Of a DNA stretch of 64,000 nucleotides, positions 6,493 through 49,274 are shown piece after piece. The notes under the pieces were generated by a model that was not told the origin of the DNA, searched no databases, and was given only the letters and a program-made list of their open reading frames with translations. A program made the position numbers and the translations under genes. The stretch is from Christensenellaceae bacterium. Its GTDB lineage: Bacteria; Bacillota; Clostridia; Christensenellales; Borkfalkiaceae. Positions within the stretch are counted from its first letter, which is position 1, and every line of letters starts with the position of its first letter. The stretch is from NCBI GenBank assembly GCA_045534575.1, contig JAZSJZ010000006.1:14374-78373 (forward strand), written 5' to 3'.

Positions 6493-6774
6493 ATGAAAAA
6501 GTATATTTTTGAAAGAGAAGAATTTAAGTGGGCGGAAGAATTTTATGAGGTTATTAAAAGAAAAATGGAATTGCCAGATTATTTTGGCTCTAATGCTGAC
6601 GCTCTTTGGGATATGTTGACGGGTTTTATTGAAACGCCGTGTGAAATTGTTTTAATTGGTTTTGATAGAGAAGAAAATGAATATAATAAAAATATGTTAA
6701 AACGAATTATCTCTTGTTTTGAAACGGCTGAAAAAGAGTTTCCAGATCAATTTAAAATTACGAAAATAAATTAA
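6493..6774 (+). CDS. barstar-family ribonuclease inhibitor (orphan)
   Basis: 93 aa; ELPDYFGSNADALWDMLTG closely matches the barstar core (LPEYYGENLDALWDCLTG). No barnase-like gene adjacent. Confidence 0.8.
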   Translation: MKKYIFEREEFKWAEEFYEVIKRKMELPDYFGSNADALWDMLTGFIETPCEIVLIGFDREENEYNKNMLKRIISCFETAEKEFPDQFKITKIN

Positions 6775-38427: not shown

Positions 38428-38436
38428 GGAGTGAGT

Positions 38437-38967
38437 ATGAGAACACCTGACACACCTGCATGGTATATTCTTCATACCCGTTCTGGTTACGAGGCTTTGG
38501 TTAAAACAGGGCTTGAAAAACTTATCGAAAACAGTAACCTTGGCGATACTATTTTCGATATTCAAATCCCAATGGAACAAACCATAGAAGAGAAAAACGG
38601 CAAAAAGAAGGTTGTTTTAAGAAAGAGATTTCCTTCATACGTTTTTCTTAAAATGATTTATAAAAACGATTTATGGTTCGTTATCACAAACACTCGTGGC
38701 GTTACGGGCTTTGTAGGCCCACAAGGTAAGCCAACGGCTTTAACCGAAGCGGAAGTTAAAAGGCTTGGGTTAGAGACTAAGGTTGAGAATTTCGACGTTG
38801 TTGTTGGCGATACGGTTAAAATCGTTACGGGCGCGCTCGAAGGCTTCATTGGCGAAGTTGAATCGCTTGATAATAACAATCAAAAGGCAATGGTTAAAGT
38901 TTCTATGTTCGAAAGAGAAACAAGCATCGAAGTAACCTTTGCAGAACTTAGTAAAATAGATGCTTAA
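38437..38967 (+). CDS. nusG: transcription termination/antitermination factor NusG
   Basis: WYILHTRSGYE NGN domain, KOW VGDTVKIVTGALEGFIGEV. ATG 38437 preferred for RBS spacing over GTG 38431. Confidence 0.95.
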   Translation: MRTPDTPAWYILHTRSGYEALVKTGLEKLIENSNLGDTIFDIQIPMEQTIEEKNGKKKVVLRKRFPSYVFLKMIYKNDLWFVITNTRGVTGFVGPQGKPTALTEAEVKRLGLETKVENFDVVVGDTVKIVTGALEGFIGEVESLDNNNQKAMVKVSMFERETSIEVTFAELSKIDA

Positions 38968-39070
38968 TTTAAATTAGTTATTGCTCGCAAAAAGGTTTTG
39001 CGAGTTGTGGGAGAGGCGTTAAATTTTTTCTATGGCGCCTTGCAATTACCACTTATATGGAGGTATAATT

Positions 39071-39496
39071 ATGGCAAAAAAAGTTACGGCTGTAGTAAAA
39101 CTTCAATTACCTGCCGGTAAAGCAACTCCGGGCCCACCTGTTGGTTCAACCTTAGGTCCTTACGGTATCAACATTCCGGGCTTCACGAAGGAATTCAACG
39201 CAAAAACGACTGATAAGGCTGGTCTTATCATTCCTGTAGTTATCACGATTTATCAAGATAGATCCTTCACGTTCATCATGAAAACCCCGCCTGTTCCTGT
39301 TCTTATCAAGAAGGCGTGCGGTATCGAATCGGCAAGTGCAACACCTAACAAAGTTAAAGTTGCTAAACTTACCAAGGCGCAAGTTGAAGAAATTGCCAAG
39401 ACGAAGATAGTTGATACTAATGCTGCTTCACTCGAGGCTTGCATGAGCATGGTTGCTGGTACTGCTCGCAGTATGGGCATCACTGTTGAGGACTAA
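39071..39496 (+). CDS. rplK: 50S ribosomal protein L11
   Basis: [25 protein letters not shown]...; GGAGG RBS 7 nt upstream; the track ORF is 5'-extended. Confidence 0.97.
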
Positions 39497-39546
39497 TATA
39501 GTTTGTGGGAGGGTTTTTCCCGTTTGACCACAAGGAGGTTTATTTT

Positions 39547-40236
39547 ATGAAATACGGTAAAAAATACGTTGACAGTAGAAAATCTTACGACCGCGCTATT
39601 CAATACGAAGTTGGCGAGGCAATGGATATAGTATTAAACACTGCTAAGGCTAAATTTGACGAAACGGTTGAACTTCACGTTAAACTTGGTGTTGACCCTA
39701 AACAAGCCGACCAACAAGTTCGTGGCGTTATCGTTTTACCTAACGGAACTGGTAAATCTGTTAAAGTTCTCGTTATCGCTAAGGGCGAAAAGGCTGACCA
39801 AGCACAAGAAGCAGGCGCAGAATTCGTTGGCGCTGAAGAAATCGTTGCTAAAATCCAAAAGGAAAACTGGTTCGATTTCGACGTTGTTATCACCACCCCT
39901 GATATGATGGGCGTTGTTGGTAGAATTGGTAAGCTTTTAGGTCCTAAGGGTTTAATGCCAAACCCTAAGTCTGGCACGGTTACTATGGACGTTGCTAAGG
40001 CTGTTAAAGATGCTAAGGCTGGTAAAGTTGAATATAGACTTGATAAGCAAGCAATCATCCACTGCCCAATCGGTAAGAAGAGTTTTGGTAAGGAAAAACT
40101 TATCGAAAACTACACTGCTTTATACGAAGCAATAGTTAAGGCTAAACCAGCTGCTGCAAAAGGTCAATACGTAAAGAGCGTAACCTTAGCAAGCACAATG
40201 GGCCCTGGCGTTAAAGTTTCTAACAAAACTCTTTAA
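39547..40236 (+). CDS. rplA: 50S ribosomal protein L1
   Basis: [10 protein letters not shown]...[30 protein letters not shown]. Confidence 0.97.
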
Positions 40237-40277
40237 TTTTAGTTGACACAATTAATTTTTTGTGTTAAAGTTACTAA

Positions 40278-40400
40278 GTAATAATTGAATAGCCGAAGAA
40301 AGCTGGTTTTAAGTCTCGCAAGAGCACCCGCCGAGGAAGTTTTAAAAACGCTATTTTATCGCGCTCTTTTGCTGTCCTTGGCAAAGGAGCGTCTTTTTTT
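40278..40400 (+). promoter_or_regulatory. rplJ (L10) leader with attenuator hairpin
   Basis: Structured leader after a TTGACA promoter-like site (40243). GCTCTTTTGC/GCAAAGGAGC stem plus T8 (40363-40400) just before the rplJ RBS. Firmicute L10 leaders are known to act by attenuation. Confidence 0.5.
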
Positions 40401-40427
40401 GGCTATATTCTTAAAGGAGGTATTATT

Positions 40428-40949
40428 TTGTCAGCAAATTTAGAGAACAAAAAGCAAGTTGTTGAAAGCATTAAGGAAAAAATCCAAAACGCTAAGTCAG
40501 TTGTTTTTGTTGACTACAAGGGTTTAACCGTTTTAGAAGACACTGAATTTAGAAATGAATTTAGAAAAGCAAACTGCGAATACAAAGTTTTGAAAAACAC
40601 CTTAGTTAGAAAAGCGTTCAACGAACTTGGTATCACTTGTTTTGACGAGGACTTAAACGGTCCAACAGCAGTTGCTTTTGGTGAAGACGAAACTGCTGCA
40701 GCAAAAGTAGTTGTTGAGGCTTGCAAAAAGTTCAACGACAAAATTTCAGTAAAAAGTGCATACGTTGACGGCGCTTACGTTGACGTTAAGGGTGTTAAAG
40801 CATTATCTGCAATGCCATCTAAGGAAGAACTCATTGCAAAAATGCTTGGTTCTATGCAAGCACCTATCACAAACTTTGCAGGTGCTTTATCTGGCATCAC
40901 TAGAAAACTCGTTATTGCGCTTAATGCAATTAGCGAAAAGAAGGCATAA
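40428..40949 (+). CDS. rplJ: 50S ribosomal protein L10
   Basis: TTG start with AAAGGAGG RBS; typical L10 sequence and position. Confidence 0.95.
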
Positions 40950-41011
40950 TTTGCCTAATCAACAAACAGCAAAATTTTAAAAAAATAAATAATAATCGGA
41001 GGATATTTAAA

Positions 41012-41383
41012 ATGGCTGATATTGCAAAATTTTTAGAAGAAATTAAGAGTATGACTGTTCTTGAACTTAACGAACTCGTTAAGGCTTTAGAAGAAGAATT
41101 TGGCGTTAGCGCTGCTGCTCCTGTTGCAGTTGCTGCTGCTCCAGCTGCCGCTGCTGCTCCAGCTGAAGAAGAAAAGACTGAATTCAACGTTGTTCTCAAA
41201 GACATGGGTAGCAACAAGATTGCTGTTATCAAGGCAGTTAGAGAAATCACTGGTCTTGGTTTAGCAGAAGCTAAGGCTTTAGCTGAAAAAGGTGGCGTAA
41301 TCAAAGAAGCTGTTGCTAAAGACGAAGCAGAAAAGATGGTTGCTAAGTTCAAAGAAGCTGGCGCAACTGCAGTTGCTGAATAA
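41012..41383 (+). CDS. rplL: 50S ribosomal protein L7/L12
   Basis: Ala-rich hinge, C-terminal domain [24 protein letters not shown]. Confidence 0.97.
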
Positions 41384-41400
41384 TTTAAGCAAAACAAAAA

Positions 41401-41424
41401 AGGCAAGTTATCTTGCCTTTTTTT
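41401..41424 (+). terminator. intrinsic terminator after rplL
   Basis: AGGCAAG-TTAT-CTTGCCT followed by T7. Confidence 0.8.
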
Positions 41425-41586: not shown

Positions 41587-41640
41587 TGTCGCATTTTGGC
41601 TTAAAATATGCGTGCAAAACATTTGTTAAAAATATCGACA
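41587..41640. promoter_or_regulatory. two 0A-box-like heptamers upstream of the spo0A homologue
   Basis: TGTCGCA (41587-41593) and reverse-complement TGTCGAT (41634-41640); each is one mismatch from TGTCGAA. Weak evidence in AT-rich DNA. Confidence 0.25.
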
Positions 41641-41743
41641 TTTTTTGTTTATTTTTGTTCAAAAATAATAAAAAATAGTTTGGAATTTTCGCGTTTTATG
41701 TTATAATTTTTATTGTTGAAAAAAGATATAAAAGGAGTCAAAA

Positions 41744-42505
41744 ATGTCTAAACACACTGTATTTATTTTACAAGAGAAACAGAGTGCAATAGATGAACTG
41801 ACGAAAATTTTAACAAGCGCCGATTTTGAGGTTATCGGTAGCAGTTGTTATGGCAATAAGGCAGTTGAAGCCGTTGCCGAGAGTAAACCTGATTTTTTAA
41901 TTCTTGGAATAATTTCGTTTTGTCTTGACGGGCTAGAGGTTATGGCAAGGGTAAAAGAAATGAAAGTTAATACTAAATGCATCGTTATAAGTTCCATAAC
42001 TAGAGAAGAAATCATCCAAAAGGCTTTTGAAGAGGGCGCTTATTACTACTTTGCAAAACCGCTTGATGAAAAAGTTTTGGTCGATAGGCTTTTAGGCTTT
42101 ATGAAAAAAGAGCAAGTGGCTGAGGTTAAATCGTTTAGCGGTGAGATTAAAAAGAGCGTGAGTTTAGATGAAAAAATCAGCAAAATTTTCATATCGGTTG
42201 GAATTCCACCGCATATCAAGGGTTATACATATCTTCGCGAAGGCATAAAAATGGCGGTCAAAACGCCTGAAGTTATAAACAACATAACTAAAAAACTTTA
42301 CCCGTCGATTGGCGAAAAATATCAAACGTCGGCGTCGAAGGTAGAAAGAGCGATTCGCCACGCAATCGAAGTTGCTTGGAATAGGGGCAGAATAGATAGC
42401 ATAAATTCAATTTTTGGAGTTAGGGCTTACGTTGGTAGCGAAAAGCCTACTAACGGCGAATTTATTGCACTCGTTGCCGATAAAATGATTCTCGAAGGGG
42501 CTTAA
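41744..42505 (+). CDS. spo0A: Spo0A-family sporulation regulator with degenerate (pseudo-)receiver domain
   Basis: C-terminal domain matches Spo0A very closely (GIPPHIKGYTYLREGI, SKVERAIRHAIEVAWNRG, KPTNGEFIALVADKM). The receiver fold is present but D10/D11/D56 equivalents are Q10/E11/G55. Confidence 0.85.
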   Translation: MSKHTVFILQEKQSAIDELTKILTSADFEVIGSSCYGNKAVEAVAESKPDFLILGIISFCLDGLEVMARVKEMKVNTKCIVISSITREEIIQKAFEEGAYYYFAKPLDEKVLVDRLLGFMKKEQVAEVKSFSGEIKKSVSLDEKISKIFISVGIPPHIKGYTYLREGIKMAVKTPEVINNITKKLYPSIGEKYQTSASKVERAIRHAIEVAWNRGRIDSINSIFGVRAYVGSEKPTNGEFIALVADKMILEGA

Positions 42506-42717
42506 TAGGTTGTAATTTTAAACAAAAATCTTTTGCTAAATCTTAAAAAACATTAATTTTTAGTAAAATATAAAAAAATATCAAAAAATTTATAAAAAAC
42601 ACTTTACAAATTTTCATATAATAAATATAATAAGTGCGCTTGAATCATTTAAGCGCATATATTTTTTGCAAGTTTTGCATAGAATTGCGTATAAGAGCGT
42701 TCATTTGGAGGTTTTTC

Positions 42718-43260
42718 ATGCCAAAATATAAACTTTGCCCAAGATGTGAGTTAAATTATATTCTAGAAGACGAGCAATTTTGCGGTGTTTGTAAAGCCGA
42801 ACTTAAAATAGGCCCTCAACTCACGTTCGCCGTTGACGACGATGAGGATAATCAAGAAAAACTTTGCCCTATTTGCAAAAGGGTTTATATTCCCGTTACC
42901 GCCGATATGTGCGATACCTGCAAAGAACAATCGCAATATGGCGACGATAAGGACGAAATTGATCTCGATAAGGATGAAAAATGGCGTGATTTCCTCGATG
43001 ACGACGAGAAAGACGATATCATAAACAAGGAAAATAGCGAGGAATTCTTGTCTTTATCGGAACTTGAAAAGCAAGAGGCTGAGGAACTTTTCGACGACGA
43101 GGAAGAAGAATATACTGACGACGACGAAATGATGGAAACTCGCGACGATTTTGACGACGATTTCGAAATTATTCCTTTCAAAGAAGGCGACTACGACGAA
43201 GACGACGAGGATGACGACGAAGACGATGACGATTTCGACGACGAGGATGACGATATTTAA
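42718..43260 (+). CDS. zinc-ribbon protein with extremely acidic C-terminal tail
   Basis: Start at ATG 42718 (GGAGG RBS). CPRC..CGVC and CPIC..CDTC pairs, then a D/E-rich tail ending DDEDDDEDDDDFDDEDDDI. Confidence 0.5.
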   Translation: MPKYKLCPRCELNYILEDEQFCGVCKAELKIGPQLTFAVDDDEDNQEKLCPICKRVYIPVTADMCDTCKEQSQYGDDKDEIDLDKDEKWRDFLDDDEKDDIINKENSEEFLSLSELEKQEAEELFDDEEEEYTDDDEMMETRDDFDDDFEIIPFKEGDYDEDDEDDDEDDDDFDDEDDDI

Positions 43261-43294: not shown

Positions 43295-43552
43295 ATGTTT
43301 ATGATTAAGTCAAATTTAAGTTTTGAATCTGTAAAGCGAGCGGTTGAGGCGCTGTTTAACCAAAAGGTTAAAATCACGCAAAACTTAGGCAGAAACAAGT
43401 TCGTTTCATATCAAGGCGTGGTAAGCGGGGTGTATCCAGCGCTGTTTACCATAACGCCAGACCTTCCTAATAACTTTAAAACGAGTTTTTCTTACGCTGA
43501 AGTTATTTGTGGAGACGTTAAAATTTCAACAAAACAAGAAAAAAGGGGCTAA
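43295..43552 (+). CDS. veg: Veg-family protein
   Basis: KITQNLGRNKFVSYQGVVSGVYPALFTI...SFSYAEV parallels B. subtilis Veg (LKANGGRRK..ERSGIL.ETYPSVFVI..SYSYADI). Confidence 0.75.
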   Translation: MFMIKSNLSFESVKRAVEALFNQKVKITQNLGRNKFVSYQGVVSGVYPALFTITPDLPNNFKTSFSYAEVICGDVKISTKQEKRG

Positions 43553-43653: not shown

Positions 43654-45120
43654 ATGATTCAAGCGGAATATGATAATTTTACGTTATGCTCAAAAAAATG
43701 CACACAAAAAAAGAACGAACTAGAGTGTTCGCTCAATCTATCTCAAGACTATTTTGATAAAATTTTGTCAGTTTCGGCTAAAATTGTTGAAACTACGGCA
43801 AACGTTGAGGCTGGTTTAATTATTTATGGCGGAACGGTTGTTTTTAACGCAATTTTCCAAAACGAAGAACTAGAGCGAAACGAGGTTGGCGCAAGATTTT
43901 CCTTCTCGATGCCAATCGATGGTGGAGCAACAAATGCTAGCGCAAAATATCAAATAGATAACGTTAAAATCAAAAAAGAAGGCGGAATGCTTTTTGCCGT
44001 TCTAGATTTAACCTCTATTATTTGCTACGTTGAAAAGGAAGACAAAAAATATTTAACAAGTTCAAATTGCCTTGTTAATCGTGCTAAAAACTTTAGCCTT
44101 TGCGATATTGAATTTGGAAAAGTTTTCGACCTTGACGACGAGTTTGATGTTAAACGCATAAAAAAGGTGCTTTGGCAGGATGCTAGAGCGAGCGTAACTT
44201 CACTAGAAGTGAAAGAAAATGCCGTTATTTGCGATGGCGAGGTAACCTTGTGCGTTTGTTTGTTGCCTTTTTTAGAAAATAGTGATATATTAAAAGAAGA
44301 AAGAATTATTCCTTTCCGTTTTGAAGTGGATGCTGATGGGGCTGAGAGTTTTATGCTCGCAAGGTCTTCAGCAAGCGTTGAGAAGTTGCAACTTAAAGTT
44401 GTTGTTGATGAAGAAAATAACAAATCAACCATAACCGCCGAGATTGCCGTGAAAATTTTTGGCTTCGTTCAAGGCGAAATTGAAGAAGATTTTATCGTTG
44501 ACGTTTTTAGCCCAACCGTAGAACTGAAGCCAAGTTTTGTTGAAAGGTCGATTGATAAACTCATTTCACAAACGAGTTTTATTCACAAAATTTCAGGTAA
44601 AGCCATTTGCGACGTGCCAGAATATTCACGCTTTATCAAACTTATTTGCGAAAGCATTGAGTATTCCACGTCTTTAGAAAACGACGAAATTTTGCTCGTT
44701 GGCGTTATGAATGCAGACGCGCTTTTCTCTTCAGGAGAGGGCGAACTTATCTGCAAAAAAGCCTCGCTTCCGTTCACGATAAATCTTCCAACTGAGGGCG
44801 ACGAAAAGGAAGTTGAAGCCGTTTTGCAAAGCGTTTCGGCAAAACTTAGAAGCGGTGCAATAGAGGTCGATTTAGCACTTAGAATTTGTGAGGTAAAAAC
44901 CAAGAAGTTGGTCTATATGCTCGTTAACGACGTTATTGAGGGTGAAGAAACGCCAGAAAACGATAGCGCAATTAGCGTTTATATTGCTCAAAAGGGCGAT
45001 GACGAATGGACTTGTATGAAACGGTTGCAAGCGTCAATTGAAGAAATTTATAAGTTCAATAAAGATATTGAATTTCCGCTTAAAGGCGATGAGAGAATAA
45101 TCGTGTTTAGGCAAAAATAA
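43654..45120 (+). CDS. DUF3794-like repeat protein with C-terminal LysM-like motif (SipL/SpoVID-analogue candidate)
   Basis: 488 aa. C-terminus SVYIAQKGDDEWTCMKRLQASIEEIYKFN...GDERIIVF fits the LysM pattern; lies between veg and ispE among sporulation genes. Family assignment is from memory only. Confidence 0.4.
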   Translation: MIQAEYDNFTLCSKKCTQKKNELECSLNLSQDYFDKILSVSAKIVETTANVEAGLIIYGGTVVFNAIFQNEELERNEVGARFSFSMPIDGGATNASAKYQIDNVKIKKEGGMLFAVLDLTSIICYVEKEDKKYLTSSNCLVNRAKNFSLCDIEFGKVFDLDDEFDVKRIKKVLWQDARASVTSLEVKENAVICDGEVTLCVCLLPFLENSDILKEERIIPFRFEVDADGAESFMLARSSASVEKLQLKVVVDEENNKSTITAEIAVKIFGFVQGEIEEDFIVDVFSPTVELKPSFVERSIDKLISQTSFIHKISGKAICDVPEYSRFIKLICESIEYSTSLENDEILLVGVMNADALFSSGEGELICKKASLPFTINLPTEGDEKEVEAVLQSVSAKLRSGAIEVDLALRICEVKTKKLVYMLVNDVIEGEETPENDSAISVYIAQKGDDEWTCMKRLQASIEEIYKFNKDIEFPLKGDERIIVFRQK

Positions 45121-45134
45121 AAAAGAGGTAACTA

Positions 45135-46052
45135 ATGAAAACGGTTCGCGAAAAAGCTTACGCAAAAATAAATTTGTTTTTAGATATCGTAGGGGTTGAC
45201 GATGTTGGCTACCATATGCTCGATAGCGTTGTTTCAACCATTTCGCTTTTCGATAGCGTTACGGTAACTAAAAGAAAAGACGATAAAATCGTTTTAAAAA
45301 CAGCGGGCAGTTTGTATTCTATAACCGACGGGTTTGATAACAACGCCTATAAAGCGGCAAAACTTCTTCAAGAAACTTACCAAACATTGGGCGTTGATAT
45401 AACGCTTAATAAAAATATTCCCGTAGCAAGCGGTCTAGGCGGTTCTTCTGCCGATATTGCCGGCGTTTTAAAAGCAATGAAAAAACTTTTTGCAATAAAA
45501 GAAGATATTAAACCGCTTGCCGATAAGTTAGGAAGTGATTCGGGTTATCTTTTAACGGGTGGCTTTGCTAGGCTAACAGGTAGGGGCGAAATTGTAGAAG
45601 AACTTGAGTTAACTAATAAACTTTATCTCGTTATAGCCGTTGCTAAAGGCGGGGTGAACACGGCGGATTGCTATAAGGAGTTCGACAACGAAAAAACCTT
45701 GCCAAAATTAGGCGGAGCATTAAACCTTATCGAAAACTTATCTAAAAACCAAATTGACCAAAATGATTTTTATAACGCACTTTATCTTCCAGCAACTAAG
45801 ATTAACCAAAAAGTGAAAGAACTTTATGAAGATATGAAAGCGTTATCGCCAAAAGCAGTTGCAATGAGCGGGAGCGGAAGTAGTGTGTTCGCAGTATTCG
45901 ATTCGTTCGAACTTACCGAGTGGGCTCGTTTAAAATTAAAGAAAAAGTATAAAGACGTGTTTACTGCTCAAACGCTAACCAAAGACGAAATGCTAAAAGG
46001 CGGGCTTTTTGCCAAATCGCCTTATCGGCTTGAAGAAGACGAAATGAAATAA
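45135..46052 (+). CDS. ispE: 4-diphosphocytidyl-2-C-methyl-D-erythritol kinase
   Basis: AYAKINLFLDIVG, PVASGLGGSSADIAGVL GHMP kinase motif. Confidence 0.9.
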   Translation: MKTVREKAYAKINLFLDIVGVDDVGYHMLDSVVSTISLFDSVTVTKRKDDKIVLKTAGSLYSITDGFDNNAYKAAKLLQETYQTLGVDITLNKNIPVASGLGGSSADIAGVLKAMKKLFAIKEDIKPLADKLGSDSGYLLTGGFARLTGRGEIVEELELTNKLYLVIAVAKGGVNTADCYKEFDNEKTLPKLGGALNLIENLSKNQIDQNDFYNALYLPATKINQKVKELYEDMKALSPKAVAMSGSGSSVFAVFDSFELTEWARLKLKKKYKDVFTAQTLTKDEMLKGGLFAKSPYRLEEDEMK

Positions 46053-46161: not shown

Positions 46162-46689
46162 ATGAAACGCCTATGCATAAGTTTTGCCGTTATTCTCATA
46201 ATAATTTTAGCATTTAGCCAAATTCCAACAAAACAAGAAAACTCTCAGTATTTGCGAATTCATATTCGTGCTAATTCTAACGCTAGCGTTGACCAACAAA
46301 TAAAACTTGAAATTAGAGATTTGGTTGTCAACTTTCTTGCAAAAGATATTGCTTGCATCCACTCTAAAGAAGATGCAATGAAACTTATTGAGAGTAAGAA
46401 AAGTGCCGTTAACGGGCTTATAGACGGGTTTTTGCAACAAAAAGGTTTTAATTATAGCGCAAACGTTAAGATTTGCAAGGAAGAATTTCCGTCGCGGCAA
46501 TATGAAGACGTTACTTTGAGCGCAGGCTATTATGACGCCGTAATTATTGAGCTTGGAAAGGCTGAGGGCGATAATTGGTGGTGCGTTGTTTTTCCACCGC
46601 TTTGCTGGACAGATACGTCCGTTAAATATAAATCAAAAATCTTAGAAATTATAGACGATTTTTTTAACATTAACAATAAGGAGGAATAA
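46162..46689 (+). CDS. spoIIR: stage II sporulation protein R
   Basis: YLRIHIRANSNASVDQQIKLEIRD and NWWCVVFPPLC hallmarks. Confidence 0.85.
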   Translation: MKRLCISFAVILIIILAFSQIPTKQENSQYLRIHIRANSNASVDQQIKLEIRDLVVNFLAKDIACIHSKEDAMKLIESKKSAVNGLIDGFLQQKGFNYSANVKICKEEFPSRQYEDVTLSAGYYDAVIIELGKAEGDNWWCVVFPPLCWTDTSVKYKSKILEIIDDFFNINNKEE

Positions 46690-47408
46690 TGAAAAAAGCG
46701 TTAAAAATTTTAACTTTATCGCTTGCGTTCGTGGCAGTTGTATCAATTTTTGGCATTATTTCAATAAATAATAGAAAGAGTGATGCCGAAGTTTTCAGTC
46801 AAGACCAAGCGGTTATGATAGCAACTTATCGTCAAGGCTCAACGGGCGCGACGGTAAAAACTATTCAACGAAAACTAAAGAATTGGGGCTACTATACCGG
46901 CTCGGTTGACGGCATTTTCGGTGCGAAAACTACGGCTGCCGTTAAATACTTCCAAAGAAAGAACGGGTTAACTGCTGACGGCATTGTGGGAAGCAAAACG
47001 CTAAAAGCGCTTGGCATTTCAACTTCTGCGTCTTCAACCTCGGGTGGCAGTTACTCTAACAGTGATTTAAACCTTTTAGCAAGAGTTATCAGCGGTGAAG
47101 CGCGTGGCGAAAACTATACAGGCAAGGTTGCCGTTGGCGCTGTTGTTTTAAACAGAGTTAAAAGTTCATCGTTCCCAAACACAATTTCAGGCGTTATTTA
47201 TCAGCCGTATGCTTTCACAGCGGTAGCAGACGGGCAAATAAACGTTGCGCCAGATAACGCGTGCTATGAAGCGGCAAAGGCTGCGCTTAACGGTTGGGAC
47301 CCAACGGGTGGCGCAATTTATTATTACAATCCAAAAACAGCAACTAGCTCTTGGATTTTCTCAAGAACTACGGTTGCCGTAATCGGTAATCACGTTTTTG
47401 CAATTTAA
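46689..47408 (+). CDS. sleB: spore cortex-lytic enzyme (PG-binding domain plus SleB/CwlJ hydrolase domain)
   Basis: GSTGATVKTIQRKLKNWGYYTGSVDGIFG PG_binding_1; ISGEARGE...GAVVLNRV...VIYQPYAFTAV hydrolase_2. Confidence 0.85.
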   Translation: MKKALKILTLSLAFVAVVSIFGIISINNRKSDAEVFSQDQAVMIATYRQGSTGATVKTIQRKLKNWGYYTGSVDGIFGAKTTAAVKYFQRKNGLTADGIVGSKTLKALGISTSASSTSGGSYSNSDLNLLARVISGEARGENYTGKVAVGAVVLNRVKSSSFPNTISGVIYQPYAFTAVADGQINVAPDNACYEAAKAALNGWDPTGGAIYYYNPKTATSSWIFSRTTVAVIGNHVFAI

Positions 47409-47420
47409 TGAGGAGGGAAG

Positions 47421-49274
47421 ATGGAAAACAAAAAGAATAATGCAACTGAAAAGGTTGAAAATATAACGAACGAAACTTCCAACGAAAAAAGCGAGCAAAA
47501 AGCGCAAAATTCAAAAACGGCGCAAAAAAACGCCGAGAAAAAGGCTGAAAATCAAAGAACTAAAAATGCCGTTCAAAAAAAGAACGACAAGAAGGCTAAA
47601 AAATCAGCAAAGACCGAAAAACAGTCGGCTCGTGAAAAGAAGAAAGAGTTAAGAAAAGAACTTAATAAGAAAAAACGCGAAGAGTGGAAAAGAGAGCGTT
47701 TGAGAAGAAAAGAAGAACGCCTTGCTCGCCGTGATATGTTGAAAAAAGAAAGTAAAAAAGATAGAGAAAAACGCCTTCAAGCCGAGAAACAAGCAAAACT
47801 TAAGGAAAGGCTTGCAAAACGAGAAGAAAAAATTAAAAGACTTGAAGAAAAAAATGCGCTCCGTCGCCAAAAACTTGCCGATAGAAGGATGCTCCGTGAA
47901 CAAAAAATGCGAGAAAAAAACGAGCAAAAAAGAGAGCGTTCAAGAAAGGGTCTTGGCGGTTGGATAACAGCAGTTTCCATCCTTGGCGCAACGACTTTAG
48001 CCTTAGCCACACTTTTCACGCTATCGCTAACAACGCCACTTGGCTCTAGCGATGACGTTAGTATGGTTGGCGGGGTGGACGAGGCTTTCTACGAATTTGT
48101 TGATATGGTTAACGATATGGACGTGAACCTATCAAAACTCGTTGTTTCAACCGATGAAAAATCGCAACAAAAAATCTTAAGCGACCTTGTTGTTTCGTCA
48201 ACTTTAGCGGAGGTTGCAGTGTCTAGATTACCGCTAAAAGACGAGAGTAGATATTACACTATGAAATACGTTAACCAAGTTGGCGATTTCTCAAAATACC
48301 TCAATAACAAGCTTATAGACGGGGATAACCTTAATAAGGACGACAAAGAAAACCTATCTAGCCTTTATAAAATTACCAACACTTTAAAGAACGAAATAAA
48401 TCTTGCGGTTGATAGCATGGGTGAAGATTTCAACTTTGCAACTATGCTTGATGAAAATAGCGATAACGTTGTTTTAAAGGCGTTTAACAACCTAGAATCT
48501 AACGCGATTGACTACCCAACTTTAATCTATGACGGTCCTTTTAGCGACGGGCTTCAAACTAAAGAAGTTAAGAATTTAAAGGGCGAGGAAATTAATCTCG
48601 TTGAGGCTAGAGCCATTTTCGAAAAGGCTTTTCAAGACTATAACGTGAAGGAAATTGAAGAACTTGGCGAATTAAACTCTAGAATTAACACCTATAATTT
48701 TGAAGCAAAGTCAAACGATACAATTCTTTTTGCCGAAATTTCTAAAAAGGGCGGAAAGGTTATCAGTTTTAACACCTTTGCCGACTGCTATAATAAGAAT
48801 TATTCTTTAGAAGATTGCATTGAAATCGGTTACGATATGATCGAAAGTTTAGGCGTTAGTGGTATGACTGCCGTTTGGGCTACCGAAAGCGGTGCTACGG
48901 CTTATATTAACTACGCTTACGAAACTAAAGACGCTATCTGCTACCCTGATATGATTAAGGTCGCAGTATGTATGGAAAGGGGCGTTGTTTCTAACTTTGA
49001 CGCTAGAGAATACTATTTCAACCATCAAGAAAGAAAAATTGAAGCGCCAACCTTAACAAAAGAGCAAGCCGTTGCAAAAATCAATAAAGATATTCAAGTT
49101 GATACGGTAAGGCTTGCAATCGTTCCAAAGGGCACTGAAAAGGAAGTTTTAACTTATGAAATTGCTGGCGTTTATGAAGATAATCAATATTTCGTTTACG
49201 TTGACGCAAAAACAGGCAGAGAAGTTAACATCTTTAAAGTGGTAGAAAACACCGAAGGAAAACTCATAGTTTAA
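47421..49274 (+). CDS. ypeB: germination protein YpeB with a long K/E/R-rich N-terminal extension
   Basis: TM at about aa 180, YpeB body and C-terminal PepSY-like repeats (VLTYEIAGVYEDNQYFVYVDAKTGREVNI); directly follows sleB. Confidence 0.75.
   Translation: MENKKNNATEKVENITNETSNEKSEQKAQNSKTAQKNAEKKAENQRTKNAVQKKNDKKAKKSAKTEKQSAREKKKELRKELNKKKREEWKRERLRRKEERLARRDMLKKESKKDREKRLQAEKQAKLKERLAKREEKIKRLEEKNALRRQKLADRRMLREQKMREKNEQKRERSRKGLGGWITAVSILGATTLALATLFTLSLTTPLGSSDDVSMVGGVDEAFYEFVDMVNDMDVNLSKLVVSTDEKSQQKILSDLVVSSTLAEVAVSRLPLKDESRYYTMKYVNQVGDFSKYLNNKLIDGDNLNKDDKENLSSLYKITNTLKNEINLAVDSMGEDFNFATMLDENSDNVVLKAFNNLESNAIDYPTLIYDGPFSDGLQTKEVKNLKGEEINLVEARAIFEKAFQDYNVKEIEELGELNSRINTYNFEAKSNDTILFAEISKKGGKVISFNTFADCYNKNYSLEDCIEIGYDMIESLGVSGMTAVWATESGATAYINYAYETKDAICYPDMIKVAVCMERGVVSNFDAREYYFNHQERKIEAPTLTKEQAVAKINKDIQVDTVRLAIVPKGTEKEVLTYEIAGVYEDNQYFVYVDAKTGREVNIFKVVENTEGKLIV

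Follow-up and report, generated by a model that had tools for sequence, protein, structure and literature searches.

A Spo0A with an aspartate-less pseudo-receiver in a clade of gut Clostridia, and its candidate role as a phosphorylation-independent regulator of sporulation

The stretch of DNA analysed here (hereafter the window: 64,000 nucleotides of contig JAZSJZ010000006.1 from Christensenellaceae bacterium, assembly GCA_045534575.1) carries, upstream of a run of sporulation genes, a gene for the sporulation regulator Spo0A whose receiver domain has glycine at the position of the phospho-acceptor aspartate. The protein belongs to a clade of at least 78 species in which this position varies. 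According to reviews, Spo0A is activated in all endospore formers by phosphorylation of a conserved Asp (PMC11210211), and the canonical protein, once phosphorylated, dimerises and then binds 0A boxes (PMC11210211). The gene, its two domains and the active-site residues on which the argument turns lie at the following positions.

41744 to 42505, plus strand: spo0A coding sequence, 253 amino acids (aa) plus stop (open reading frame list, Pfam receiver and Spo0A_C domains, TIGR02875)
41759 to 42091, plus strand: receiver (REC) domain, residues 6-116, classed as an aspartate-less pseudo-receiver (PF00072, AlphaFold2 fold, Foldseek)
41771 to 41776, plus strand: codons CAA GAG, encoding Q10 and E11 in place of the acidic pair (D10 D11 in B. 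subtilis Spo0A; profile alignment)
41906 to 41908, plus strand: codon GGA, encoding G55 at the phospho-acceptor position (D56 in B. subtilis Spo0A; pairwise and profile alignments)
41990 to 41992, plus strand: S83, the conserved Ser/Thr switch residue, kept (Ser in 92% of clade sequences)
42056 to 42058, plus strand: K105, the conserved active-site Lys, kept (120/120 nearest relatives; 96% of clade loci)
42176 to 42484, plus strand: Spo0A_C DNA-binding and transcription-activation domain, residues 145-247 (PF08769)

The open reading frame begins with ATG, with a GGAG 8 nt 5' of it, and the receiver and Spo0A C-terminal hidden Markov models (HMMs), the check proposed in an earlier note made from the sequence alone, recover both domains: Response_reg (PF00072) at residues 6-116 with E 3.1e-14 and 53.5 bits against the Pfam cut-off of 30.2, and Spo0A_C (PF08769) with E 9.8e-39 and 132 bits, covering model positions 1-103 of 104. 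That note had called the DNA-binding half unmistakably Spo0A, and this is borne out: the NCBIfam Spo0A equivalog model TIGR02875 matches the whole protein at 236.7 bits, above its curated cut-off of 200, the C-terminal half shares 56-59% identity with the Spo0A DNA-binding domain structures 1fc3 and 1lq1 (template modelling score, TM, 0.89-0.93), and the recognition-helix stretch VERAIRHAIEVAW is identical to that in 1lq1. By descent, architecture and DNA-binding domain, the window protein is Spo0A. AlphaFold2, run with the clade alignment, gives a (beta-alpha)5 receiver with a predicted local distance difference test score (pLDDT) of 88-98 and a confident Spo0A_C domain, joined by a disordered linker (residues 123-138) and with no fixed domain arrangement (predicted TM score, pTM, 0.51). 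Foldseek confirms both folds, the predicted receiver reaching a TM of 0.94 to solved receiver structures. Structure prediction, which had been suggested as a way to see a receiver locked in an active-like conformation, therefore confirms the two folds, but an active-like state is not readable from the model.

The receiver site itself departs from the canonical pattern. Pairwise and profile alignments agree in placing Q10, E11 and G55 opposite D10, D11 and D56, as first read by eye, and the careful profile alignment that had been named as a possible refutation puts glycine, and no Asp, at the acceptor position. phmmer aligns the protein to 1dz3 and 9phz, structures of the Spo0A receiver, with no gaps near the active site and with G55 opposite the Asp of LLLDIIMPHLDG. 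In the HMM built from 48 canonical Spo0A representatives, defined by the quintet [DE]-D-D-[ST]-K, 'ivdDne' pairs with ILQEKQ and 'vvllDiimpelDG' with FLILGIISFCLDG, again without gaps and at the top posterior probability, and the acceptor column is Asp in 48/48 of the canonical sequences. The window quintet is Q-E-G-S-K, and the complete DD-D-T/S-K quintet is absent, the Thr/Ser and Lys positions (S83 and K105) being kept as proposed. A shifted acceptor at D50 or D62, the only Asp residues nearby, was considered and rejected, as both also occur in canonical Spo0A. Nor is G55 a sequencing error, because a separate species, that of the closest locus (L001, from metagenome-assembled genome (MAG) JAZNBE01; 90% protein and 84% DNA identity to the window), has the same residue.

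The surroundings of the site are altered as well. Canonical Spo0A conserves Met at D+3 (M58, 88%), Pro at D+4 (P59, 90%) and P77 (85%), all of which are lost in the clade; the first two are S58 and F59 in the window, and L and S in the clade consensus. Retained alongside K105 and S83 are Y101, an aromatic residue (F/Y) at 102 and a small residue at 84 (T+1), and conservation of L112 and R115 in alpha5 is higher in the clade than in canonical Spo0A. The columns of the alpha1 specificity helix are equally variable in the canonical set and in the clade, and are uninformative on the loss of a kinase partner. With glycine at residue 55, the canonical site has no side chain that could take up a phosphoryl group, and the earlier claim that the protein cannot be phosphorylated there holds to that extent. 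The receiver fits the definition given in PMC12632262, being recognised by PF00072, lacking the acceptor D and the first D of the DD pair and keeping T (here Ser83) and K; it thereby counts as an aspartate-less pseudo-receiver. A remodelled beta3-alpha3 loop, with loss of Pro at D+4, is a general pattern of pseudo-receivers (PMC12632262).

This degeneration is clade-wide. The closest relatives of the window Spo0A in a collection of 5.8 billion proteins are only about 66% identical to it. Among the best 120 relatives (protein clusters), position 10 is Gln in 117 and Lys105 is invariant, and position 55 is Gly in 88, Glu in 19, Asp in 9 and Ser in 3. A scan of one genome per GTDB species yielded 80 loci, all from MAGs of uncultured gut or rumen bacteria that depositors had labelled Christensenellaceae, Christensenella sp. 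or Clostridia bacterium, and 78 usable species-level sequences were counted. Position 10 is Q in 70 of these, E in 4, another residue in 4 and Asp in none; position 11 is D in 48, E in 18, G in 8 and another residue in 4, with Gly, Ala, Pro and Asn among the states. The acceptor position is E in 27 species, D in 25 and G in 24, with S and N found once each. At least one carboxylate among positions 10, 11 and 55 is always kept, and one subclade reads Q-G-D-S-K, with Asp55 present and both residues of the acidic pair gone. The survey of relatives for the D-to-G change, which had been put forward as a check, hence finds a Gly acceptor in 24/78 species, and the idea of a peculiarity of one protein is not borne out.

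A neighbour-joining (NJ) tree of the clade sequences and 105 representatives from outside the clade shows the clade as monophyletic, with the D, E and G acceptor forms interleaved. Fitch parsimony on this tree counts about 24 acceptor changes, an approximate number since the tree is rough. The acceptor residue differs between proteins as close as 81%, 76% and 74% identity, and Gly55 is encoded in the clade by all four Gly codons, each one step from an Asp or Glu codon. These sequences are most simply read as a loss, or a great weakening, of the need for phospho-chemistry at the base of the clade, with the acceptor drifting since. Among the 105 nearest full-length representatives outside the clade, 20 are aspartate-less and 35 are other pseudo-receivers; degenerate Spo0A receiver sites may therefore extend beyond the clade studied here. 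As a separate observation, the relatives of P0123, the closest full-quintet representative (E-D-D-S-K), include 21 protein clusters with D-C-D-S-K (Cys for the second metal-binding Asp, acceptor kept) and seven with D-D-E-S-K, which are further pseudo-receiver Spo0A lineages outside the clade.

The order at the locus is spo0A, a zinc-ribbon gene, veg, sipL, ispE, spoIIR, sleB and ypeB, and the neighbouring features are as follows.

41396 to 41423, no strand assigned: palindromic hairpin with flanking A and T runs, following rplL; probably a terminator, which would set spo0A apart from the ribosomal operon (from the sequence)
42715 to 43260, plus strand: double zinc-ribbon protein with a very acidic tail, the downstream neighbour of spo0A (PF12773, weak)
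43295 to 43552, plus strand: veg (PF06257, E 8e-16)
43654 to 45120, plus strand: SipL-like gene with a SPOCS domain (PF12673, E 1.9e-15; intact, ratio of nonsynonymous to synonymous substitution rates, dN/dS, 0.109)
46162 to 46689, plus strand: spoIIR (PF09551, E 2.9e-40; dN/dS 0.117)
46689 to 47408, plus strand: sleB (PF07486 and PF01471; dN/dS 0.100)
47421 to 49274, plus strand: ypeB (PF14620, PF20769 and PF03413; dN/dS 0.091)

The Pfam matches bear out the SipL-like gene, spoIIR, sleB and ypeB that had been noticed downstream of spo0A, and an ispE-like kinase gene lies between the SipL-like gene and spoIIR. Most loci long enough to show it preserve the order from spo0A to ypeB. On the upstream side, the window has spo0A straight after nusG-rplKAJL (38431-41383), in place of rpoB-rpoC; most clade species have there a gene for a lipoprotein of about 630 aa without a Pfam match, itself preceded by rplM-rpsI. 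P0123 was used as the query for the canonical counterpart, and P0271 is 82% identical. The P0271 locus reads rpoB, rpoC, a 247-aa gene, spo0A, the zinc-ribbon gene, veg, a 507-aa gene, spoIIR, sleB and ypeB. P0271 has the canonical quintet (EDDSK) and belongs to a 30%-GC lineage; in the sister lineage (L082) spo0A lies just downstream of rpoB-rpoC. Because this arrangement is shared, the locus is older than the loss of the pocket, and by position the window gene is orthologous to a canonical Spo0A. The loop in the P0271 lineage reads LDIILSGKDG, already without Met-Pro, which suggests that the receiver site degenerated stepwise.

The zinc-ribbon gene adjoins spo0A in 60/80 loci, stays with veg where spo0A and veg are separated, and is a conserved veg neighbour both in the clade and in the canonical-quintet sister lineage (L019, L061, L073, L076, L081, L082); the only Pfam matches of its acidic product are weak double-zinc-ribbon hits near the cut-off. 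As a dedicated partner of spo0A it was considered and rejected, since it follows veg and also accompanies the canonical-quintet Spo0A (L081, L082). Its start is probably the ATG at 42715 and not the GTG at 42634, and a strong promoter-like site TTTACA-17-TATAAT (42603-42631) is immediately followed, in the leader of the gene, by a hairpin and T-run (42634-42658), which may be an attenuator. Neither the 64 kb of the window nor the 10 kb on each side of spo0A in the 80 loci showed a second Spo0A_C or receiver, and no histidine kinase is encoded in the window. Two loci that might have passed for a pair of copies, L078 and L079 (CAKQQS010000006.1), are identical genes at both ends of a 121.7-kb contig and were set aside as a probable circularised or duplicated assembly end.

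Selection was gauged as dN/dS by the method of Nei and Gojobori, in nine close pairs spanning the G, E and D acceptor types. Across these pairs the receiver gives 0.04-0.14 and the DNA-binding domain 0.01-0.05, with no obvious difference between G, E and D forms. Between the window and L001 the values are 0.087 for the receiver, 0.030 for Spo0A_C and 0.095 for the whole of spo0A, and sipL, ispE, spoIIR, sleB and ypeB are full-length, with 0.09-0.12 and no stops or frameshifts. The receiver, the DNA-binding domain and the sporulation neighbours are under purifying selection. Decay of this spo0A copy, which the earlier note had listed among the findings that would undo its proposal, is not borne out, given the low dN/dS and the intact sporulation genes next to it.

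The upstream region of spo0A gives further indications of a working regulator, and in the window it contains three candidate elements.

41587 to 41593, plus strand: 0A-box-like TGTCGCA, 6/7 to TGTCGAA, at -157 (exact boxes of relatives cluster at -175 to -125)
41634 to 41640, minus strand: 0A-box-like TGTCGAT, 6/7, at -110, the position of the conserved clade box (heptamer match)
41680 to 41707, plus strand: promoter-like TTGGAA-16-(TG)TATAAT, about 37 nt before the start codon (consensus match only, 10/12, with an extended -10 TG)

When the 7-mers in the 350 nt 5' of the clade's spo0A genes are ranked by enrichment, the canonical 0A box TGTCGAA comes within the top three, occurring in 50/74 upstream regions as compared with 46/800 control segments (11.5-fold enrichment). 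Most clade promoters have the exact box on the minus strand (read as TTCGACA) at -85 to -135, where it peaks sharply, and a second peak lies on the plus strand at -125 to -175. All three main acceptor types share the box, which is found in 13/24 upstream regions of G forms, 17/24 of E forms and 18/24 of D forms. The conserved upstream boxes support a working, autoregulated 0A-box regulator as far as promoter sequences can indicate it, and the case for autoregulation rests mainly on the relatives, because the window promoter has only 6/7 boxes, both lying upstream of the promoter-like site. The boxes fit abundance-based control without proving it. Two other heptamer pairs are also strongly enriched upstream of the spo0A genes in L001-L080, TTGTACA/TGTACAA (29/74 vs 26/800) and TTGAACA/TGTTCAA (27/74 vs 35/800); TTGTACA and TTGAACA often occur as TTTGTACAAAA flanking the 0A box and could represent degenerate 0A boxes or a site for some other regulator. 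The 0A box TGTCGAA is, apart from this, apparently avoided in the window genome.

Together, these data lead us to lean, by a little, towards the window protein being the functional Spo0A of its lineage, with a pseudo-receiver that acts without Asp phosphorylation. The protein is predicted to be a working transcription factor because its DNA-binding domain and recognition helix are nearly unchanged and 0A boxes stand at a conserved promoter position, and its independence from phosphorylation is deduced solely from the way in which the acceptor varies freely between D, E, G, S and N. In the sequence of events that we envisage, the clade would have exchanged the first metal-binding Asp for Gln, and the Met-Pro of the beta3-alpha3 loop would have gone; from then on the phospho-acceptor position would have been free to vary between Asp, Glu, Gly, Ser and Asn. 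The receiver would now work independently of phosphorylation, most likely as a dimerisation domain of a constitutive or active-like kind, which K105, S83 and at least one pocket carboxylate might hold together; the near-invariant Lys105 and the always-kept carboxylate fit a putative structural salt bridge. Entry into sporulation would be set mainly by the amount of Spo0A, through its own autoregulated promoter, and not by His-Asp phosphotransfer. Whether this extends to the lineage as a whole, such that a group of gut Clostridia of family or order rank, with at least 78 species, would start sporulation without His-Asp phosphotransfer, with the pseudo-receiver established at the base of the clade, the acceptor selectively neutral and control exerted by autoregulated abundance or by a partner or ligand, is in our estimate an even bet. 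What stands of the earlier interpretation is the absence of canonical phosphorylation next to intact sporulation genes, whereas its framing as a single-protein peculiarity does not, and the decoy paralogue that it left open is improbable.

Several observations weigh against phosphorylation-independent action controlled by abundance. The retained K105, S83, Y101, aromatic residue at 102 and small residue at 84 resemble a switching domain more than an inert dimeriser. Asp55 together with Asp or Glu at position 11 is kept in a quarter to a third of the clade species; some clade members, and possibly the ancestor, might still be weakly phosphorylated, and having Gln as the first residue of the acidic pair does not prove that metal binding is lost. 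On the promoter side, both 0A-box-like sites in the window are imperfect, the exact TGTCGAA occurs only once in the 64 kb (45681-45687, inside ispE) as compared with 8.0 +/- 2.7 expected from dinucleotide-preserving shuffles, and 0A boxes also precede canonical spo0A genes, so that they show function and not mode of control. Finally, two spo0A genes are present in 10/118 Spo0A-positive genomes (Galperin, preprint), a finding that would suit a decoy.

The receiver might, on the other hand, still be a regulated switch, thrown by a partner protein (kinase-like or an anti-activator), by a ligand in the old pocket, or by Ser/Thr/Tyr phosphorylation through a Hanks-type kinase, an explanation that we regard as a real possibility although not a probable one. 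It would account for the strong purifying selection on the REC domain, for the kept K105, S83, Y101, F/Y102 and small T+1 residue, for the carboxylate maintained among positions 10, 11 and 55, and for L112 and R115 being more conserved than in canonical Spo0A, and it has a parallel in known pseudo-receivers, which use diverse mechanisms including partners and ligands (PMC12632262). However, no conserved partner gene is linked to spo0A, as the zinc-ribbon gene follows veg and the upstream neighbour varies, no kinase was found in the 64-kb window, and the free variation of the acceptor side chain speaks against a precise ligand site there. Continued His-Asp phosphorylation at another carboxylate, e.g. 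E11 or D62, appears very unlikely: E11/D11 and D62 are conserved and K105 and S83 are kept, but D62 is just as conserved in canonical Spo0A without serving as its acceptor, and some clade members have Gly, Ala, Pro or Asn at position 11. We know of no precedent for acceptor relocation in receivers, which counts further against it.

Two other explanations would deny the gene its place as the master regulator of sporulation. In the first, sporulation would be run by a canonical, phosphorylatable Spo0A from another part of the genome, and the window gene would be a decoy or auxiliary paralogue that modulates it or serves some other purpose; the view of the window genome is limited to 64 kb, and many metagenomic Spo0A-like representatives are degenerate (20 aspartate-less and 35 other pseudo-receivers of 105), both of which leave room for this. 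Yet the window protein scores above the Spo0A equivalog cut-off, its gene stands at the locus where a related lineage has its canonical-quintet Spo0A, that locus is conserved in at least 60 species beside core sporulation genes, Asp-bearing and Asp-less forms are interleaved within one clade, and neither the window nor the 10 kb on each side in the 80 loci contains a second copy. The decoy alternative raised in the earlier note is thereby disfavoured, a positional orthologue under strong purifying selection making it improbable. Alternatively, spo0A could be a relic in a lineage that no longer sporulates, the regulator drifting or being co-opted for regulation unrelated to sporulation; descriptions of Christensenella minuta and its relatives call them non-spore-forming, and one tool predicted that most Christensenellales MAGs do not sporulate. 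The dN/dS of 0.095 for spo0A and 0.09-0.12 for sipL, spoIIR, sleB and ypeB, free of stops and frameshifts, and the same gene set intact in dozens of species, stand against such a relic, as does PMC12536801, which states, with reference to Sun et al. 2024, that cultured Christensenellaceae have been observed with endospores. We give this explanation scarcely any credence.

The preferred reading of a functional, phosphorylation-independent Spo0A can be set beside several known systems. The window protein shares with canonical Spo0A (B. subtilis, C. difficile, C. acetobutylicum) the two-domain architecture, the upstream 0A boxes and the surroundings of sporulation genes, but differs from it in Gly55, Gln10, Glu11 and the absence of Met-Pro in the beta3-alpha3 loop; by its residues it fails the functional hallmark of canonical Spo0A, phospho-activation at the conserved Asp. 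Its gene is also not adjacent to spoIVB, the usual neighbour of spo0A. In B. subtilis, constitutive forms of Spo0A (the Sad67 deletion and the isolated C-terminal domain) activate sporulation genes unphosphorylated once receiver inhibition is removed, and a natural phosphorylation-independent Spo0A is on this account mechanistically plausible. Unlike those laboratory mutants, in which the receiver is damaged or absent, the protein described here has a complete receiver, predicted to be well folded and under purifying selection. With regulators of the aspartate-less receiver (ALR) or pseudo-receiver type (HP1043/HsrA, ChxR, BldM, WhiI) it shares the loss of Pro at D+4 and the prediction of a phosphorylation-independent transcription factor, and Spo0A, like the Streptomyces developmental regulators BldM and WhiI, governs a developmental programme. 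It differs from other ALRs in that the output domain is Spo0A_C and in that the pseudo-receiver is fixed in a clade of at least 78 species while the acceptor drifts. The mechanisms of pseudo-receivers are still called a mystery (PMC12632262). Paralogous spo0A genes have been reported in some Clostridiales, e.g. Anaerostipes hadrus (Galperin, preprint), and resemble the present case as divergent Spo0A-family genes in gut Clostridia; those paralogues are extra copies beside a main gene, whereas the window gene is a positional orthologue with no second copy in the DNA examined.

In the literature searched, no description of an aspartate-less or pseudo-receiver Spo0A, or of Spo0A in Christensenellaceae, was found beyond one line of a census table: in its supplementary table, the 2015 census of ALRs lists 7 of 391 REC-Spo0A_C proteins as ALRs and does not discuss them. 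Spo0A itself is known; what is new, at the level of sequence, is a Spo0A with a pseudo-receiver fixed in a large clade. If the proposed mechanism is true, it would contradict the textbook rule that Spo0A is Asp-phosphorylated in all endospore formers, an assumption on which much work on gut spore formers, including the hunt for sporulation kinases, relies. A large, abundant, host-associated clade would then be a natural experiment in rewiring a master switch away from two-component signalling, and the pseudo-receiver field would gain a family with a known output, DNA site and phenotype and with dozens of natural D/E/G variants. Genome-based predictors of sporulation that score the presence of spo0A or of kinases may misjudge these lineages, and cultured spore-forming Christensenellaceae would make the question experimentally tractable.

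Two minor observations were made in the course of this analysis. In the window, a barstar-family gene (6493-6774; PF01337, E 1e-17) follows a gene for a GntR-aminotransferase regulator, with no barnase-like gene recognised beside it. Four Spo0A_C proteins (P0121, P0126, P0133 and P0142) have an architecture of which we know no description: they lack a receiver and carry three or four tandem Spo0A_C domains, with lengths of 439, 454, 394 and 428 aa, respectively, and PF08769 scores of 311-398 bits over 3-4 stretches each.

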